In this document: positions 54,414-61,453 of the stretch, in pieces
Layout: every line of letters starts with the position of its first letter
Numbering within the stretch: the stretch's first letter is position 1
Source: Armatimonadota bacterium
GTDB taxonomy: Bacteria; Armatimonadota; HRBIN16
NCBI GenBank assembly: GCA_963677485.1
Contig: OY781964.1
Location: forward strand, 864,001-928,000
Reading direction: 5' to 3'
Length of the DNA stretch: 64,000 bases
The notes under the pieces: model-generated
Database searches by the model: none
The model's input: only the letters and a program-made list of their open reading frames with translations
What the model was told of the DNA's origin: nothing
Translations under genes and position numbers: made by a program

Positions 54414-56253
54414 ACATCCAACGAATCACCCATGCACGGTGCGGTGGATCCAATGCCGCATCATGCATGGGTAAAAATCCCCAGCAAACCACGGCATCAC
54501 CATCGGTAAACAATACAATCCATCAAATCCCATGAGTTTCAGACCGAATGCACCTAATCGTGTAAATAACAAGGTAATATTTATAATAATAAGCACCATC
54601 ATTCGGCCAACCCGCGTTGGGGTTTGATAGAGCGTCTTGAGCGTTACCCGGTATATTTCAACACGACATCCTGGTTTTGGGAGGGTAACAATGGACGGAA
54701 GAGGCAACGACCAACCATCGCACCCTAATGGGTCTGCTCACGAACAAGTATCTCACGCCAAACCATCGGCGTTTATCGAAAATGCATCTCGAAGTGACCT
54801 TAACAAACTCAACCTGTCCCTCAAAGCCATCAGTGAGTGCAACAACGCGCTGATCCACGCGGCAGATGAAGCCGACCTGCTGTATCAGGTCTGCCGAATC
54901 ATCACCGACATCTGCGGCTATAAGCTGGCATGGATCGGCTATGCGATCCACGACGAGATGAAAAGTGTGCAACCGATCGCTCAGGTGGGATTTGACGACG
55001 GCTATCTTGATCAAGCAGGCATCACCTGGGACGACACCGAACAAGGCCGCGGCCCTACTGGCACAGCCATCCGTACGGGGAAACCATGCCTTGCCCGCGA
55101 TATCCTGACAGACCCAAACTATGCGCCATGGCGAAAACAAGCCACGAAACGCGGGTATGCCGCATCAATCGTATTACCGCTTCTCATTGAGGGTCAGGTC
55201 ATCGGAGCACTCAATGTCTACTCCTCACAACCAGACGCCTTCGATTCGGAGGAGATGGTATTGCTGACCGAGTTGGCCAAGTTCCTCTCTTTTGGGATCG
55301 CTGCCATGCGAAGCCGCCTGCAGTTGGCTGAGTCGGAACAGACCACGCGCCTCAGTGAAGAAATGCTTCGGATGCTGGGTGACAACCTTCCAGACAGCTA
55401 CGTCTACCAGTATGACTATAAGCCAGACGGCAGCCCGAGGTTTTTATATATTAGTGCCGGTTTACAGGCTCTTCACGGAGTGTCAGCCGAAGATGCTCTG
55501 CATGATGCCAGTCTGCTTTTTCGCCAAATGAAACCAGAGCAGCTTCCATCTTTCCTATCGGCTGAAGCACACAGCATGGAGACCATGACTGACTTCGAAA
55601 TGGATATGGAGATGCAGCGGACCGACGGGCAATGGCGATGGTTCAGGATGAGATCGCGTCCCCGTCTTGAAACGAGCGGACATGTGGTTTGGGACGGAGT
55701 CGCCACAGATATCACAGATCGTAAACAAGCGGAGGAAGCAAAAAAAGCACTAGAACGAAGGCTTGAGGATATCTTTGAATTCCTTCCCGACGCGACATTT
55801 ATCATTGACCAGAACCACCAGGTGGTCGCCTGGAACCGTGCTTGCGAAGTTCTGACAGGCGTGAGCAAACTGGACATGGTTGGCAAAGGCAACCACGTTT
55901 ATTCGATGCCCTTTGTGGGTGATAATCGGCCACTGCTCATTGACATGCTAGACGACCCTGACGCTGTCAGCGATCATTCTTACTCGTATTTCAAGCGTAG
56001 TGACAATCTCATCACCGCAGAGGACTATAACTACTACCTGCAAGAAGGACGGGGTCTATATCTCATCATTACCGCTGCTCCACTTTTCGACCGTAACGGT
56101 CAGCGTTGTGGAGCCATAGAATCGATCCGCGATATCACGGAACGCAGAGCAGCCGAAGTGGCACTACAGGAAAGCGAACGTAAGTATCGAGAGTTAGTAG
56201 ACAATGCGAACAGCATCATTCTGCGATGGACGCGGGACGGTCGAATATCCTAC

Positions 56254-57913
56254 CTAAGGCGGCTTAGCCGCAACCAAAAAAGGAATGATTGCATTCGCCA
56301 CGTAATATACATTCAAACACCCTTTCGTGAGGTTGCCCAGAATGACATCACTTCAAGAACGCTATGCAAAGCAGATAGCTGGGGTATATTCATGCTTCGA
56401 CCGCATAGTTATCACCGGTACAATCCCAGGCTGGTGTCATAGCGACGGAATGGGCATCTATCTTCATCAACGCAACATCAGGCTATTTGACTTTCCTAAG
56501 GAATTTGCCGAACCTCTACGAGATGAGATCAAAGCCAATGCGGAACGCCTTGCCGTTACCAACAGCATTGAAATTGAGTATATACGCCGTGCCTCTTCAT
56601 TTCGAAAAGAAGACCGCATCAAAGAGATCATTAGTAGTCGAGGGTGTCACCCCGGTCTCGTCCACATATTCTCAGTGTTGGAAAAATGTCCTGCATACAC
56701 CCCGTGGCACGACAAGATTACCCACAAAACCCGGCTGAATATCAAGGAGACCAAGTGTCTTCATTACTACTTCTATTTCATCGATGCAGAGTTTGGACTG
56801 TGCTATCTACGAGTTCCGACCTGGGTGCCCTTCCGTCTGCAATTCTATTGTAATGGACACAATTATCTCGCGCATTGCCTTCAATCCGAGGGAGTAGTTT
56901 TCACTCCACTGGACAACGCCTTTGTAAAAATCGACGACTTTAGCTGTGCTCAGAGGCTGGCAGACGCTTTTCCTGCTGATAAGCTGCACCATGCGCTGGA
57001 TGCATTTGCCAGAATGTATTGCCCCGTGATACGGCTTGCTGACAATTCATATCATTGGTCGCTAATGCAGGTGGAATATGCTACAGACATCGTGTTCAAA
57101 CGCGCCGAAGACCTCAAAGCCATCTACGATAATCTAGTCAAAACAGCGATACATACGGTAACGCCAGAGTCTATCGCGATGTTTCTTGGTAAGAAACTTG
57201 ATGGGCGAACACTCGCTGAGATCGGCACTGACTACAAGTTCGATCGCCGCATACAAGGCACGCGCATCAAACACTACATGGGATGGGCTTCTATCAAAAT
57301 GTATGACAAGCAAGGGATAATCTTGCGTATCGAGACGACTGTGAATGACGTCTCTGAATTTAAACACTACCGTGAGGTAGAACATCATGATGGGACGACT
57401 GAGATTAAATACGCCCCTATGCAAAAGACCATCTACAGCCTTCCTCCATTGAGGGAACTGTTATTATCTGCAAACAACAGATATCTTGACTTTCTTTCCG
57501 CCCTTGATGACAACAGCGATGGTGAACATCAGATCATCAAAATCGCGACCTCGACCACCCGTGATCATCGCTCGTATCGAGGATTCAACCTTTTCCTCAA
57601 GAAGGATTTGGAATGTCTCATTGCACTTGCTCGCGGAGAGGGATGCATCAGCGGGATCACAAACCGTATGCTTCAAAAAGCCTTACCGCAGATGTCCAGC
57701 TCTCAGATATCATACTTCATCAAGCGATGCCGAGTATTCCGGCTCGTTAAAAAATGCGGTAAACGCTACAAATACTACCTCACTGCACTTGGCAAGCGTA
57801 TCATCATGGCAGCACTTGCTATTCGCCAGATCGTTGTGCCTAACGCTTTGTGTGGTGCGTAATATCAGAATATTCTATACACCGTGTTCAAAATATGGTT
57901 GGTAAGATACTAA
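56254..57913 (+). mobile_element. 1656-bp insertion element bounded by two CTAA copies
   Basis: CTAA at 56254-56257 and 57910-57913; deleting 56254-57909 restores the kinase reading frame exactly; single internal ORF; short imperfect subterminal inverted repeat. Confidence 0.9.
56342..57862 (+). CDS. Putative transposase with Rep_trans/MOBT-like motifs and a C-terminal winged helix (506 aa)
   Basis: Only long ORF of the element; QVEYATD, IKMYDK and LRIETT motifs; C-terminal MarR-like wHTH ending KYYLTALG; ATG at 56342 follows GAGG. Confidence 0.7.
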   Translation: MTSLQERYAKQIAGVYSCFDRIVITGTIPGWCHSDGMGIYLHQRNIRLFDFPKEFAEPLRDEIKANAERLAVTNSIEIEYIRRASSFRKEDRIKEIISSRGCHPGLVHIFSVLEKCPAYTPWHDKITHKTRLNIKETKCLHYYFYFIDAEFGLCYLRVPTWVPFRLQFYCNGHNYLAHCLQSEGVVFTPLDNAFVKIDDFSCAQRLADAFPADKLHHALDAFARMYCPVIRLADNSYHWSLMQVEYATDIVFKRAEDLKAIYDNLVKTAIHTVTPESIAMFLGKKLDGRTLAEIGTDYKFDRRIQGTRIKHYMGWASIKMYDKQGIILRIETTVNDVSEFKHYREVEHHDGTTEIKYAPMQKTIYSLPPLRELLLSANNRYLDFLSALDDNSDGEHQIIKIATSTTRDHRSYRGFNLFLKKDLECLIALARGEGCISGITNRMLQKALPQMSSSQISYFIKRCRVFRLVKKCGKRYKYYLTALGKRIIMAALAIRQIVVPNALCGA

Positions 57914-58991
57914 ACGAGTATGGTCAGCGTTTCTTTGGCTACACCGAATCTGAGATCGTCGGCCGGCACGTTCTGGGCACCATTGTGCCCTCTACTGATC
58001 GCAGTGGCCATGATTTACGCCTCTTGATGGAGCAGATATGCGCTGATCCAACAGCGTTTGAGCAAAACATCAATGAGAACATACGTCGAAACGGTGAGCG
58101 TGTATGGATCGCCTGGACGAACAAGATCGTCATGGACCAGGCGGGGCAAGTTCGTGAAATTATGAGCATCGGTCTAGATGTCACTAAACAAAAGCGCATG
58201 GAGGATGATCTCCGGAATATACAAGCGAACCTGGAAAACAGTGTCATGGAACGCACGGCCCAACTTGCAGAAGCACTGAACGACGCCCAAGCCGCCGACC
58301 GCACCAAGTCCGCTTTCCTAGCCACCATGTCTCACGAACTGCGCACACCGTTGAACTCCATCATAGGGTTCACAGGCCTGCTGCTGCAAGGATTGGCGGG
58401 GCCTCTCAACACAGAGCAAACAAAACAGCTCAGTATGGTCAAAAGTAGCGGGCAGCATCTTCTCGACCTTATCAACGATGTGCTCGATATATCCAAAATC
58501 GAAGCTGGACAGGTGGAACTGGCGTGGGCACCCTTCGATCTACAGGAATCCATCATTCAGGTAGTGAAGGCTATGACACCGCAGTCTGAAATCAAACGCT
58601 TACCTATTGTCATGGAGATATCATGTAATGCAGGCCTGCTGAACGGCGATAGAAGACGATTTGAGCAGGTTATGCTGAACCTGTTAAGTAACGCCATAAA
58701 GTTCACTGAGCAGGGGCAGATCACCGTCTCTGCCAGAAAAGTTGTGAACGAGTATCATGTAGCAGTCACCGACACAGGACCCGGTATTAGGCCAGAAGAT
58801 ATGGACAAGCTGTTCATACCATTCCGCCAGCTCGATTCGGGGCTCTCACGCCAGTTCGAGGGCACAGGATTAGGTTTGGCGATCTGCAAGAGGCTTGTTG
58901 AGAAGATGGGTGGTGAAATTACCGTCCAAACGGTACCCGGTCATGGCAGTGCATTCGAATTTACATTGAAGGACACTCTGGGAGCAGCTAA

Positions 58992-59390
58992 ATGAAGCAG
59001 ACAGTTTTATATATCGAAGACAACGAACAGAACCTGTATCTGGTGAAATTCCTGCTAGAGCAGCACGGTTATCTGGTGCTGTCTGCAATGAGCGGGCTTG
59101 ATGGGATAGCGATCGCCGCTGAGGTGGTACCTGATCTGATTCTGCTTGACATACAGTTGCCTCAGATGGACGGCTACGAGGTGGCCCAGGAGTTGCGCGG
59201 GAACCCAGCCTTGAAGGATGTTCCCATCATAGCAGTGACTTCATATGCCATGGTCGGTGACAGGGAACGAACCTTGGCAGCCGGATGCAATGACTATATC
59301 GAAAAGCCTATCAACCCCGATACTTTCCTGAAGCAAGTTGAGACACACCTATCAGACAGGCCCGCAGATGAGGAGGCTCCAATATCATGA
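58992..59390 (+). CDS. Single-domain response regulator (DivK/CheY-like)
   Basis: IEDN, LLDIQLPQMDG, AVTSYA and EKP; 4-nt overlap with the kinase. Confidence 0.92.
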   Translation: MKQTVLYIEDNEQNLYLVKFLLEQHGYLVLSAMSGLDGIAIAAEVVPDLILLDIQLPQMDGYEVAQELRGNPALKDVPIIAVTSYAMVGDRERTLAAGCNDYIEKPINPDTFLKQVETHLSDRPADEEAPIS

Positions 59391-61453
59391 GTATCTTGAT
59401 CGTCGATGACTATGAGGTTAACATTTACCAACTACAGTTTTTACTCAACAGCCACCACTATACAGTTGTCTCGGCGGTGAATGGTGCCGAGGCATTACAG
59501 ATGGCCCAAAAGGACCCGCCGGAGCTCATCATCAGTGACATACTCATGCCGGTCATGGATGGTTTTAGCCTCTGCCGTGAATGGATGAAAGATGCCAGGT
59601 TACGTGAAATACCGTTCATGTTCTATACAGCCACATATACCGATGAACGCGACCGCGAATTCGCACTGAAACTAGGCGCGGTGAGCTTCTTCACGAAACC
59701 AACAGAACCAGACGTAATGATCGAGGCAGTTGAATCTGCTTTGAAGCAGAAGATCGATCCGCATCAACCCGTTTCGGAGGAAACACTTCCCGAAGAGACC
59801 GGTTTCTTGAGAGGATACAACGAAGCACTTATCCGTAAACTTGAGGATAAGATGAACCAGGTAGAACAGATAAATCTGGAACTTCAGAAAGACATCACCG
59901 AGCGTAAAATGATAGAACAAGCCCTTCAGACAAGCCAGAGCCTGCTTGGGCAGACGGAAGAGCTTGGGCGTATCGGTGGTTGGGAGCTTGACATCGCCAC
60001 CTTCAGGCTATCCTGGACCGACACAATCTTCAATATCTATGAAATTGATACTCGGTTTACACCCACTTTGGATCAAAGCCTGGAATACTACACATCCGAA
60101 TCCAGACCAGTCATAGAGTCTGCTGTGAAACGCGCTATAGCTCCAGGTGAGTCGTTCGATGTGGTTGTCAACATCAATACGGCCAAGAACAACCTGCGCA
60201 CCATTCACGTTATTGGAAGAGCTGATCATGAGCAAGGCAAGGTCGTAGGATTCTACCAGGACATCACAGATTACAAACGCGCAGAGGACGAACGTGCCAA
60301 GCTGGAAGCGCAGTTGCAACAAATGCAGCGTATGGAGTCTGTCGGACGATTGGCGGGAGGTGTAGCGCATGATTTCAACAACATGCTGGGAGTGATATTA
60401 GGGCATACCGAAATCGTCCTCGAGCAGCTGGATCCATCAGAGCCACTCTATGAAGATATCGAAGAAATACAAAAGGCCGCTACTCGGTCTGCGGAGCTCA
60501 CAAGACAGCTATTGACCTTCGCCCGTAAGCAGACAGTAGCACCCAAAGTAATGAGCTTGAATGACACCATCACAGGAATGTTAAAAATGCTGAACCGCAT
60601 GATTGGTGAAAATATCAATCTGGTGTGGCATCCCAAGCTAGACGTGTGGCCGTTGTACATGGACCCCTCGCAGATCGACCAACTGCTGGCTAACCTGTGC
60701 GTCAATGCCCGTGATGCCATCGATGACACGGGAGTCATCACTATCGAAACAGGGAACCGAACGTTCGATGACGAGTTTTGCGCATCGAATCCAGAATTCA
60801 ACATCGGCCAATTTGTCAAAATCTCCGTCAATGATACAGGCTGCGGTATGAGCAGGGAGGTGCAGGCTCACATCTTCGAGCCGTTTTTTACCACGAAAGC
60901 TGTCGGGCAAGGAACCGGCCTTGGTCTCGCCACCGTATATGGCATTGTCAAACAGAACAACGGATTTATCAATGTATATAGTGAGCCGCATCATGGTACC
61001 ACATTCAGTATCTACATACCCCGGTATGCAGGTGCTACTGGCTCCGATTCCAAGTGTGATGCGGCGAAACCTGTCGTTCCTGGTCAGGAGACAGTTCTGA
61101 TTGTCGAAGATGAGATGGCGATACTCCGGCTCGTAACAAAGATGCTTCAGCAGTTAGGATACCACGTTCTGATGGCTGGCACGCCTGGTGATGCCATACG
61201 CATAGCTGAAGAACACGCTAACGAGATAGATCTGTTGATTACTGATGTCATCATGCCGGAAATGAATGGGTGTGAACTCTCGAAGCTGCTGTCAGCGAAA
61301 TACAATAACATGAAGTGCCTGTATATGTCAGGATATACCGCCGATGTCATCACCAACCGTGGCGAGCTGTATGATGGCGTCCATTTCGTACAAAAACCCT
61401 TCACTGTGGCGGAACTGGCCGCAAAACTGCGGGTTGCACTCACGTCTGACTAA
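59387..61453 (+). CDS. Hybrid sensor kinase REC-PAS-HisKA-HATPase-REC (CckA-like)
   Basis: N-terminal REC; GGVAHDFNN, NLCVNARDA, FEPFFTTK and GTGLGL; C-terminal REC (TDVIMP, QKPF). Confidence 0.92.
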   Translation: MSILIVDDYEVNIYQLQFLLNSHHYTVVSAVNGAEALQMAQKDPPELIISDILMPVMDGFSLCREWMKDARLREIPFMFYTATYTDERDREFALKLGAVSFFTKPTEPDVMIEAVESALKQKIDPHQPVSEETLPEETGFLRGYNEALIRKLEDKMNQVEQINLELQKDITERKMIEQALQTSQSLLGQTEELGRIGGWELDIATFRLSWTDTIFNIYEIDTRFTPTLDQSLEYYTSESRPVIESAVKRAIAPGESFDVVVNINTAKNNLRTIHVIGRADHEQGKVVGFYQDITDYKRAEDERAKLEAQLQQMQRMESVGRLAGGVAHDFNNMLGVILGHTEIVLEQLDPSEPLYEDIEEIQKAATRSAELTRQLLTFARKQTVAPKVMSLNDTITGMLKMLNRMIGENINLVWHPKLDVWPLYMDPSQIDQLLANLCVNARDAIDDTGVITIETGNRTFDDEFCASNPEFNIGQFVKISVNDTGCGMSREVQAHIFEPFFTTKAVGQGTGLGLATVYGIVKQNNGFINVYSEPHHGTTFSIYIPRYAGATGSDSKCDAAKPVVPGQETVLIVEDEMAILRLVTKMLQQLGYHVLMAGTPGDAIRIAEEHANEIDLLITDVIMPEMNGCELSKLLSAKYNNMKCLYMSGYTADVITNRGELYDGVHFVQKPFTVAELAAKLRVALTSD

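Follow-up and report, generated by a model that had tools for sequence, protein, structure and literature searches.

An insertion sequence without target duplication in Armatimonadota, probably moved by a Rep_trans-like nicking enzyme

How does an element whose two ends share nothing but the short word CTAA enter a gene, and what kind of enzyme carries it there? The question is raised by a sensor histidine-kinase gene that is split by a 1.66-kb insertion in a 64,000-nucleotide stretch of an Armatimonadota genome (contig OY781964.1 of assembly GCA_963677485.1, positions 864,001 to 928,000 of the forward strand; this whole stretch is called the window, and positions are counted within it). We compared the genome that holds the window (G000; 5.22 Mb, one contig) with other genomes that carry members of the same family, among them G041, G042, and G403. 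A sequence-only reading had placed CTAA at both ends of the element and had likened these ends to the origins of Rep_trans initiators and MOBT relaxases; the CTAA words (56254-56257 and 57910-57913) and all the end letters that it had given were in place. We proposed, with a probability of about 0.7, that the element is an insertion sequence (IS) moved by a Rep_trans-like nicking enzyme, which consists of a domain like the TATA-binding protein (TBP) and a MarR-like winged helix.

Copies of the element and the words that flank them

Excision of 56254-57909 in silico left one CTAA and a continuous kinase reading (...RISYL followed directly by NEYGQRFFGY...), and a stop-free frame of 861 amino acids spanned the rebuilt empty site when the flanks were limited to 1500 bases per side. 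The element begins with CTAA-G-GCGGC-TTA-GCCGC-AACCA (56254-56276), ends with TGGTTGGTAAGATA (57896-57909), and has no terminal inverted repeats. The locus is organized as follows.

54637..56253, + strand: 5' part of the PAS/GAF sensor histidine-kinase gene (open reading frame list; the frame runs on across the rebuilt empty site)
56253, + strand: C, last base of the kinase 5' part and conserved target base before the insertion point (22 copies and empty sites)
56254..57909, + strand: whole insertion element, 1656 bp, made of the element-borne CTAA and a 1652-bp core (flanks, empty sites, contig depth)
56254..56257, + strand: left CTAA, carried by the element and inherited (22/22 copies whatever the right flank; clade-specific in G403)
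56259..56271, no strand: left-end hairpin GCGGC-TTA-GCCGC, 5-bp stem and 3-base loop, one base after CTAA (folding, alignment of 59 ends)
56272..56283, + strand: conserved box AACCAAAAAAGG after the hairpin (AACCA invariant in 59/59 left ends; retained in miniature derivatives)
56342..57862, + strand: sole gene of the element, 506 amino acids from ATG, stop included (open reading frame; identical 506-residue database protein)
57302-57304, + strand: codon of the proposed nucleophile Tyr326 (numbered from GTG)
57901..57909, + strand: right end GGTAAGATA (multi-copy sets, and stretches after the stop codon in 52 loci read by eye)
57910..57913, + strand: right CTAA, the target's own sequence, outside the element (varies among copies; kept in empty sites)
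57910..58995, + strand: 3' part of the sensor histidine-kinase gene (open reading frame list)

The gene has an alternative start, a GTG at 56327 that gives a 511-residue form, and residues are numbered throughout from this upstream GTG. Promoter and terminator scans of the element stayed at chance level.

The 1652-bp core was present 22 times in G000, in 20 cases at 100% identity and once each at 99.94% and 99.21%. In public sequencing runs, contig depth stepped up about 20-fold between 56253 and 57909, to 187.6 from 8.56 in one run and to 263.8 from 13.8 in a second. Of 40 related genomes queried with the protein, 39 had no match, the two from the same genus among them, and the single match in the remaining one was weak (24% identity). 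By a mechanical count, 13 of the 22 insertion sites fell in a stop-free frame of at least 150 amino acids once the element had been removed in silico. We consider it probable that the element is an active IS of a large family that annotation does not recognize; the many identical copies are compatible with a copy-out mode, but are not proof of it. Some contigs of a public run with a related strain label lacked one A from the run at 56276 in AACCAAAAAAGG. In another public run, contigs broke within the element at 56670, 57224, and 57829 and continued into unrelated sequence, which suggests interrupted or truncated copies in that strain.

The family proved to be very large. At least 7998 of the 8000 candidates scored at 90% clustering passed as relatives, and among 50%-identity representatives 6552 passed at E <= 1e-3 and 658 at E <= 1e-30. 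They occur in many phyla, mostly on contigs of 1.6-2.5 kb, like collapsed repeats, and are named by their sources as hypothetical proteins or as MarR or ArsR regulators. Scanning one genome per species with a 26-sequence alignment gave 407 stretches that encode relatives, of which 80 loci were kept. Two of these loci (L061 and L094) came from archaea-labelled bins, one with a Bathyarchaeia-type name and one plainly called 'archaeon'; provided that the binning is correct, the family extends across domains. On a Mycobacterium riyadhense plasmid, a relative whose protein is only about 22% identical had two copies, each with CTAC and a long GC-rich hairpin at its start and CTAG after its end; the end architecture is therefore old. 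Noncoding miniatures of about 190-230 bp, which retain nothing but the region of the left-end hairpin and the motif of the right end, were found in G042 (L151-L153) and in G403 (L182-L203), the latter with at least 22 copies in several clades that differ in the left tetranucleotide. If the protein works in trans on the two ends, miniatures that share only these are to be expected. The nonautonomous derivatives that had been foreseen thus exist in these two genomes but not in G000, where the left-end pattern occurred at the 22 full copies only, and where the right-end 14-mer with up to two mismatches occurred 42 times against a hand estimate of about 33 by chance.

The flanks of the copies revealed which letters belong to the element and which to the target. 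In G000, the four bases left of the core were CTAA in all 22 copies, each time preceded by C, whereas the four bases right of the core were CTAA in 17 copies, CTAT in four, and TTAA in one. All seven full copies of G041 had CTAA on the left, with CTAA (three), CTTA (two), or CTCA (two) on the right, and the five full copies of G042 had CTAA on both sides. In G403, the three full copies began with CCAA, and CTAA followed the two whose right flank was read. The 22 miniatures of G403 had CCAA (nine), CTAA (six), TTAA (five), CCGA (one), or CCAG (one) on the left, and on their right side CTAA in 15 and otherwise seven other words, two of them at degraded ends; the left and right words agreed in only three of the 22, and the five miniatures with left TTAA formed one tight sequence clade, all with CTAA on the right. 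Left and right words were therefore unequal in 5/22 copies of G000, 4/7 of G041, and 19/22 of the G403 miniatures, and, for G000 and G041 pooled, variants were counted in 0/29 left words versus 9/29 right words (Fisher p = 0.0019).

Empty sites pointed in the same direction. For the CTAT copy at genome position 824520, two paralogous empty sites matched its flanks at 100% over 100 bases per side and had the reading ...C-CTAT-..., and therefore the target held CTAT and the left CTAA arrived with the element; this answer, obtained by a paralog search within G000, covers one of the four CTAT copies. For the TTAA copy, an uninterrupted ortholog from the same genus (87% identity) has TTAG at the place of insertion; therefore, the T at position 1 is ancestral, and the C of the left CTAA was not derived from the target. 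For the CTAT copies L014, L020, L021, and L022, no alignment of the flanks with the two same-genus genomes reached the junction, because these flanks are poorly conserved, repeat-rich intergenic DNA. These results indicated that CTAA is not a classical target duplication, as the sequence-only reading had held: the left word is inherited with the element, and the right word is that of the target. From the left and right counts together with the empty sites it follows that element and target letters meet immediately 5' of the tetranucleotide. Insertion took place between C and a CTAA-like word, as C^YTAW in G000 and, with a variable position 3, as C^YTNW in other genomes.

The same flanks bear on the possibility of an ordinary DDE cut-and-paste element with a duplication of 2-4 bp at YTAR-like targets. 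IS5 and IS701 are DDE elements that duplicate 4 bp at YTAR, and the CTAA-like words on both sides of most copies, with CTAA twice in 17 of 22, resemble their products. However, the unequal flanks in all three sets and the empty CTAT site of a copy with left CTAA speak against a duplication, the element has neither inverted repeats nor a DDE domain or family, and the fold of its protein is TBP-like rather than RNase H-like. We give this explanation hardly any weight.

Several neighboring sequences were observed beside these sites. In G000, the flanks of two CTAT copies (L021 and L022, near genome positions 824000 and 2509000) hold short repeats of about 60-160 bases, with 88 and 106 matches in the same-genus genome G001, which belong to an unrelated small repeat family. 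In the right flank of L095, about 1600-1730 bases after the left end, an 8-base unit that starts with CTAA and ends with C is repeated in tandem at least nine times, so that each unit recreates the C^CTAA target; the array may have been left by repeated, abortive, or slipped events, or may just be a preferred landing site. In the Acidobacteria-labelled loci L059, L079, and L101 and L137, L139, and L143 of G041, the right flanks are nearly identical, with CTNA followed by a shared GC-rich 9-10-mer, and the target in those genomes seems to be itself a repeat. In the window, the split kinase gene is followed directly (58992-61453) by a gene for a stand-alone receiver domain and a hybrid gene with receiver, PAS, histidine-kinase, and receiver domains; the insertion may disable the first member of a multistep phosphorelay cluster.

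The left-end hairpin, the right end, and the joined ends

A left end of the same build was found by pattern in 73 of the 80 loci, and none was found in L056, L089, L104, L109, L117, L120, and L127, most of which begin near a contig end. We aligned 59 left ends, namely the window and 58 of the 73 patterned loci, leaving out 15 further copies from genomes already represented. The family left end consists of C, CTAA, any base, a 5-bp stem with a 3-base loop, and the box AACCAAA(C/A)AGG; the C, the inner stem pairs, and AACCA were invariant, and the hairpin stood at the same place in 59/59. The outer stem covaried, with CG 44, UA 4, and GC 3 at pair 1 and CG 46 and UA 5 at pair 2; these two varying pairs showed 12 double changes and no broken pair, none of 500 shuffles matched the score, and all slid controls collapsed. 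The left end folded as DNA at -8.9 kcal/mol (z = -3.07), and the GCGGC/GCCGC fold that had been read from the window alone was thus upheld by folding and by covariation across the family. The box with AACCAAAAAAGG is the likely, predicted binding site of the winged-helix domain.

The short right end lacks a hairpin (folding z = +0.55). Its family consensus is approximately GTAAGRNA, with TAGGTA in one acidobacterial subgroup, and the word that follows it, read by eye in 52 downstream stretches, is mostly CTAA, and also CTAT, CTAC, CTAG, CTTA, CTGA, or TTAA.

The sequence-only reading had gone further and had proposed that the joined ends of a circle form a stem-loop (TGGTTG/CAACCA and TAAG/CTTA) that presents CTAA in its loop, where a Rep_trans/MOBT-type enzyme would nick it at CT^AA. 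The biochemical premise is correct according to PMC9371924: the nic site of ICEBs1 is described there as a conserved CT'AA that a GC-rich hairpin carries in its loop, and as the same sequence that is nicked in Rep_trans origins. The pT181 record likewise shows CTCTAA in the loop of a CCGGCTA/TAGCCGG palindrome. In addition, TGGTTG/CAACCA can pair around the small hairpin and is compatible with it in this element (minimum free energy of the junction, -7.5 kcal/mol), and the right flanks CTAT, CTTA, and CTCA beside a left CTAA, taken alone, fit an exchange after CT. The proposed stem-loop itself, however, was weak (-2.3 kcal/mol, vs. -5.9 for the left-end hairpin alone), and it partly excludes the small hairpin; its TAAG/CTTA pairing competes with that conserved structure. 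The 6-base complement between the ends was reached in 245 of 5000 shuffles, and in six of eight other family members the end-to-end complementarity was no better than in shuffles. An exchange at CT^AA also predicts the reverse of the TTAA copy, which has CTAA on the left and TTAA on the right, with an ancestral T at position 1 in the ortholog, and it does not fit G403, in which the first two left letters are clade-specific (CC, TT, or CT) while the right flank is mostly CTAA. Neither the exchange point nor the looped CTAA was therefore supported, and we regard this form of the Rep_trans explanation as unlikely. The conserved structure is the small hairpin one base after CTAA and not a stem that spans the junction.

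Head-to-tail pairs were seen in two loci (L066, about 2745-2800, and L131, about 2300-2350), where a right end is followed by C-CTAA and the left end of a different member; the neighbors differ in the hairpin loop. Such pairs would be compatible with conservative site-specific recombination of a double-stranded circle at a CTAA crossover core, as in IS110/IS1111 or IS607, which would also leave a short core common to both junctions and neither inverted repeats nor a duplication. A staggered core exchange, however, should leave target letters equally often on either side, and the pooled counts stated above are wholly one-sided. Moreover, neither a family nor a fold of DEDD, serine, or tyrosine recombinases was found for the protein. 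As for the DEDD enzymes of IS110/IS1111, which use a bridge RNA, the flanks of our element share only C and a tetranucleotide, a target too short and too degenerate for a guide RNA, and Rfam had no match in 56150-58000 at E <= 1. Recombination of this kind is thus an improbable explanation.

The element protein

In the AlphaFold2 models (predicted local distance difference test, 93.4 for the full length, and 95.7 for residues 1-395, with a predicted template modelling score of 0.92), residues 1-395 form a TBP-like catalytic domain, and residues 396-511 form a MarR-like winged helix that matches MarR/HxlR/ArsR-type winged helices at Z of about 9-10. The catalytic domain was modelled alone because the winged helix filled the VIA-align lists of the full-length model. 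When it was compared by Foldseek with 350,542 PDB chains, the top six matches were all Rep_trans initiators, namely RepSTK1 (4cij chains C, A, B, and D) and RepDE (4cwe_A and 4cwc_A), at probabilities of 0.95-0.99 and E values of 5.5e-4 to 3.9e-3. In VIA-align, TBPs scored Z 8.6-7.1, RepDE Z 7.1 (178 aligned, root-mean-square deviation 5.6), and RepSTK1 Z 7.0 (193 aligned, root-mean-square deviation 4.9); the next row, an unrelated one, had Z 6.7, and everything after it was below 6. Among the BFVD viral models, 15 matched at E <= 1e-3, and the match with E 6.7e-5 and probability 1.0 is an Inoviridae protein that is named Rep_trans in PMC13107129. According to that paper, structural matches of the same kinds led its authors to tie the archaeal Rep-Arvir proteins to Rep_trans. 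A homodimer prediction, run without controls, scored 0.01 against a mark of 0.42.

The conserved residues support the same relationship. Invariant among 70 diverse full-length sequences were D25, R26, G110, Y148, Y150, G157, P168, N176, N197, E250, F257, K324, Y326, R334, and E336, and D254 and K328 were conserved in at least 90%. Rep_trans proteins are described in PMC5714925 with an N-terminal Asp and the motifs RxD, T/SxY/ExG, YxKxxE, and W/LxRxE, the catalytic Tyr lying on a beta strand. In the model of our protein, strand 321-328 carries Y326-D-K328 and strand 332-339 carries L-R334-I-E336, and this Y-x-K and R-x-E match Rep_trans motifs III and IV, except that the first position of motif IV is V/I-L and not W/L-x. 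RepC of pT181 and 13 Rep_trans proteins from the phylum of the window read RIYNK or R(I/C)YDK and then (W/I)R(V/F)E. When the family was compared by hhalign with the alignment of these 14 sequences, one stretch scored, that of KMYDK..LRIE with RIYDK..IRVE (14 columns, P = 0.0044); a thin alignment of RepC only gave nothing (probability 0.12%, E 0.46). The resemblance to Rep_trans and MOBT that had been suggested from the DNA ends was thus supported by the fold and by the motifs of the protein. Candidates for the metal site are D25 (invariant, on the first strand) and E250/D254 (on the first strand of the second half).

Conventional searches recovered little. Pfam had no family for the protein at E <= 1, the only NCBIfam match was at chance level (E 0.11, 12 bits vs. 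a cut-off of 311), no relative was found among PDB sequences by single sequence, and the ESM Atlas gave nothing useful. The sole signal in the profile search was a match of the C-terminus to a MarR-type protein (E 0.014). No Y1/HUH, Y2/helicase, DDE, DEDD, serine-recombinase, or tyrosine-recombinase family of Pfam or NCBIfam was matched.

Another explanation is that the protein is merely a DNA-binding factor, with a TBP-like saddle and a winged helix, and that the element is moved by an enzyme encoded elsewhere. TBPs do score as high as Rep_trans proteins in VIA-align, and the source names of the relatives as MarR or ArsR regulators suit this explanation. However, the gene is accompanied by the same end architecture in many phyla, and also in the 22%-identical Mycobacterium plasmid relative, the invariant Tyr, Lys, Arg, and acidic residues follow the Rep_trans pattern, and the 1656 bp contain no other gene. 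We thus consider a purely DNA-binding role very improbable. From the models and the motifs we concluded that the protein is predicted to work like a Rep_trans-type tyrosine nuclease, although by sequence criteria it falls in neither of the two named families, Rep_trans (PF02486) and Rep-Arvir (PF25227).

Several observations weigh against a Rep_trans-like nicking enzyme. PF02486 and PF25227 did not match the protein at E <= 1, and neither was among the families listed for the 70 members at E <= 10; at the genome level (E <= 1), the searches with PF02486 and PF25227 were negative in G000 and positive in their control genomes, Bacillus subtilis and Haloferax volcanii, respectively. The Foldseek TM-scores were low (0.29-0.33, normalized to the target), and, since TBPs also score as high as Rep_trans proteins, the fold alone is no proof of a nuclease. 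The hhalign probability was only 7.8%, and outside the 14 columns the alignment carries no confidence; when extended, it placed D254 on the motif-I Asp and left D25 unaligned to the N-terminal Asp of Rep_trans, and therefore D25 and E250/D254 are named as candidates only. At the DNA level, the CTAA of the element lies one base 5' of the stem and not in a hairpin loop as in Rep_trans/MOBT sites, the genetic break appears to lie on the 5' side of CTAA, at a distance of two bases from where those enzymes nick CT'AA, and its exact position before position 1 depends on one TTAA copy of G000 and on the clades of G403. Relative to the replichores derived from GC skew, 15 of 22 copies pointed the same way, which is not significant (p = 0.13), so that there was no clear sign of targeting to the single-stranded lagging-strand template. 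Finally, no circle or excision joint was found in the contigs of four of the 23 listed public runs, assembled contigs being uninformative on absence.

A proposed mechanism and the place of the family

Taking the observed copy number, ends, lack of duplication, target preference, conserved hairpin, fold, and motifs together, we proposed the following mechanism for the Rep_trans-like enzyme, in which the chemistry, the strand that is cut, and the form of the intermediate are what we infer. The winged helix and the saddle would bind the left end at the hairpin and the AACCAAA box. Tyr326 would then cut one strand at C^CTAA, immediately 5' of the CTAA of the element, and would stay on the 5' phosphate, helped by a metal that acidic residues (candidates D25, E250/D254, and E336) may hold; Rep_trans enzymes remain linked to the 5' phosphate through their Tyr according to reviews, among them PMC5714925. 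A second cut would follow beyond the right end, on the 5' side of the CTAA-like word that flanks it, and the 3'-OH of the right end would resolve the adduct, either to a single-strand circle or by direct, rolling-circle-like transfer. The same chemistry at a C^CTAA-like target would paste the strand, and the host would complete the second one. Alternatively, the other strand may be cut at the same junction, read as TTAG^G, the hairpin then lying 5' of the cut like that of relaxase sites. Such a mechanism would account for the invariant left word, the variable right word, and the absence of a duplication; it would also make a resident left junction a target in itself, and head-to-tail pairs like those of L066 and L131 are then expected.

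In its behavior, the element is closest to HUH-based elements. The IS200/IS605 elements (e.g., IS608 and ISDra2), with HUH enzymes of the Y1 type, have no inverted repeats and cause no duplication, insert beside a specific tetra- or pentanucleotide, and have one junction word that is the target's and another that is the element's, a subterminal hairpin near the cleavage site, and miniature derivatives. Our element shares with them the insertion beside a fixed short word, the lack of duplication and of inverted repeats, the division of the two junction words between target and element, a hairpin close to the presumed cleavage site, and the miniatures; in contrast, its enzyme has an unrelated fold without an HUH/Y1 match, its hairpin is at one end only, and its copies show no clear bias toward the lagging-strand template (15/22). 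IS91/ISCR elements and Helitrons, with HUH enzymes of the Y2 type, have a conserved target tetranucleotide at one end, no duplication, asymmetric ends, and a hairpin near one terminus. The tetranucleotide of the target that abuts one end, the lack of a duplication, and the asymmetric ends with a hairpin near one of them recur in our element, and its high copy number is consistent with copy-out, whereas its protein has no HUH/Y2 or helicase domain and a different fold. Our data gave no sign of one-ended transposition or of captured flanking genes. The element thus behaves most like the IS200/IS605 and IS91/Helitron elements, and its enzyme has a fold unrelated to theirs.

In its enzyme, the element is closest to two groups of replicon proteins. 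With the Rep_trans initiators (RepC and RepD of the pT181 family, and RepSTK1) and the MOBT relaxases (NicK of ICEBs1, RelSt3, and Orf20 of Tn916), the element protein shares the TBP-like fold, Tyr-x-Lys on a beta strand followed by Arg-x-Glu, and an added helix-turn-helix DNA-binding domain. The DNA site is likewise CTAA with a short GC-rich hairpin, and the stem of most family members is CCGGC/GCCGG, as in the core of the pT181 palindrome. The element differs in that its protein does not match PF02486 and has a core of about 390 residues against about 200, and in being an IS of 1.66 kb without replication or conjugation genes. The Rep-Arvir proteins of archaeal viruses and plasmids (DUF7845, RepSNJ2), as described in PMC13107129, have a TBP-like domain of about 300-400 residues that is recognized by structure only, joined to a MarR-like winged helix, and the same holds for the element protein; the structural matches are also of the same type (viral TBPs and the Inoviridae Rep_trans protein), and a DNA hairpin serves as the cis site. 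The Tyr motif, however, is KMYDK in the element protein and KHYYM in Rep-Arvir as reported there, and PF25227 gave no match. In addition, our family occurs mostly in bacterial hosts and takes the form of a transposable element, not of a replicon.

The classes of insertion sequences are defined by transposase chemistry, and to our knowledge the established chemistries (DDE, DEDD, HUH, and serine and tyrosine recombinases) include no enzyme of the Rep_trans/TBP fold. The known homes of this fold are plasmid and phage initiators, relaxases of integrative and conjugative elements, and, since 2026, the archaeal Rep-Arvir proteins (PMC13107129); plasmids, filamentous phages, and conjugative transposons are the Rep_trans homes that this paper lists. 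A search of the full-text literature, which did not extend to ISfinder (e.g., its unclassified elements) or to subscription journals, found no description of a transposon or IS with a Rep_trans-type enzyme. We judge the odds slightly better than even that this is the first family of transposable elements with a tyrosine-nuclease transposase of the Rep_trans/TBP fold, a new chemical class of prokaryotic transposase recruited independently of the HUH lines (IS200/IS605, IS91/ISCR, and Helitron/Replitron). The process would be nick-and-join transposition by a different, known nuclease superfamily, and there is a fair chance that specialists would call the element a new transposase class.

If this explanation is true, a very large family (6552 clusters at 50% identity), whose members are now labelled as hypothetical proteins or as regulators, would consist of mobile-element enzymes, and annotation would overlook both these elements and the gene disruptions that they cause, such as that of the sensor kinase described here and, by the mechanical count, those at 13 of 22 sites. 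The compact system, with a single protein, a 5-base site, and no duplication, would offer a new object to mechanistic studies and to the development of tools. The site made of CTAA and a GC-rich hairpin would then join transposition, plasmid replication, and conjugative nicking in one lineage of enzymes.

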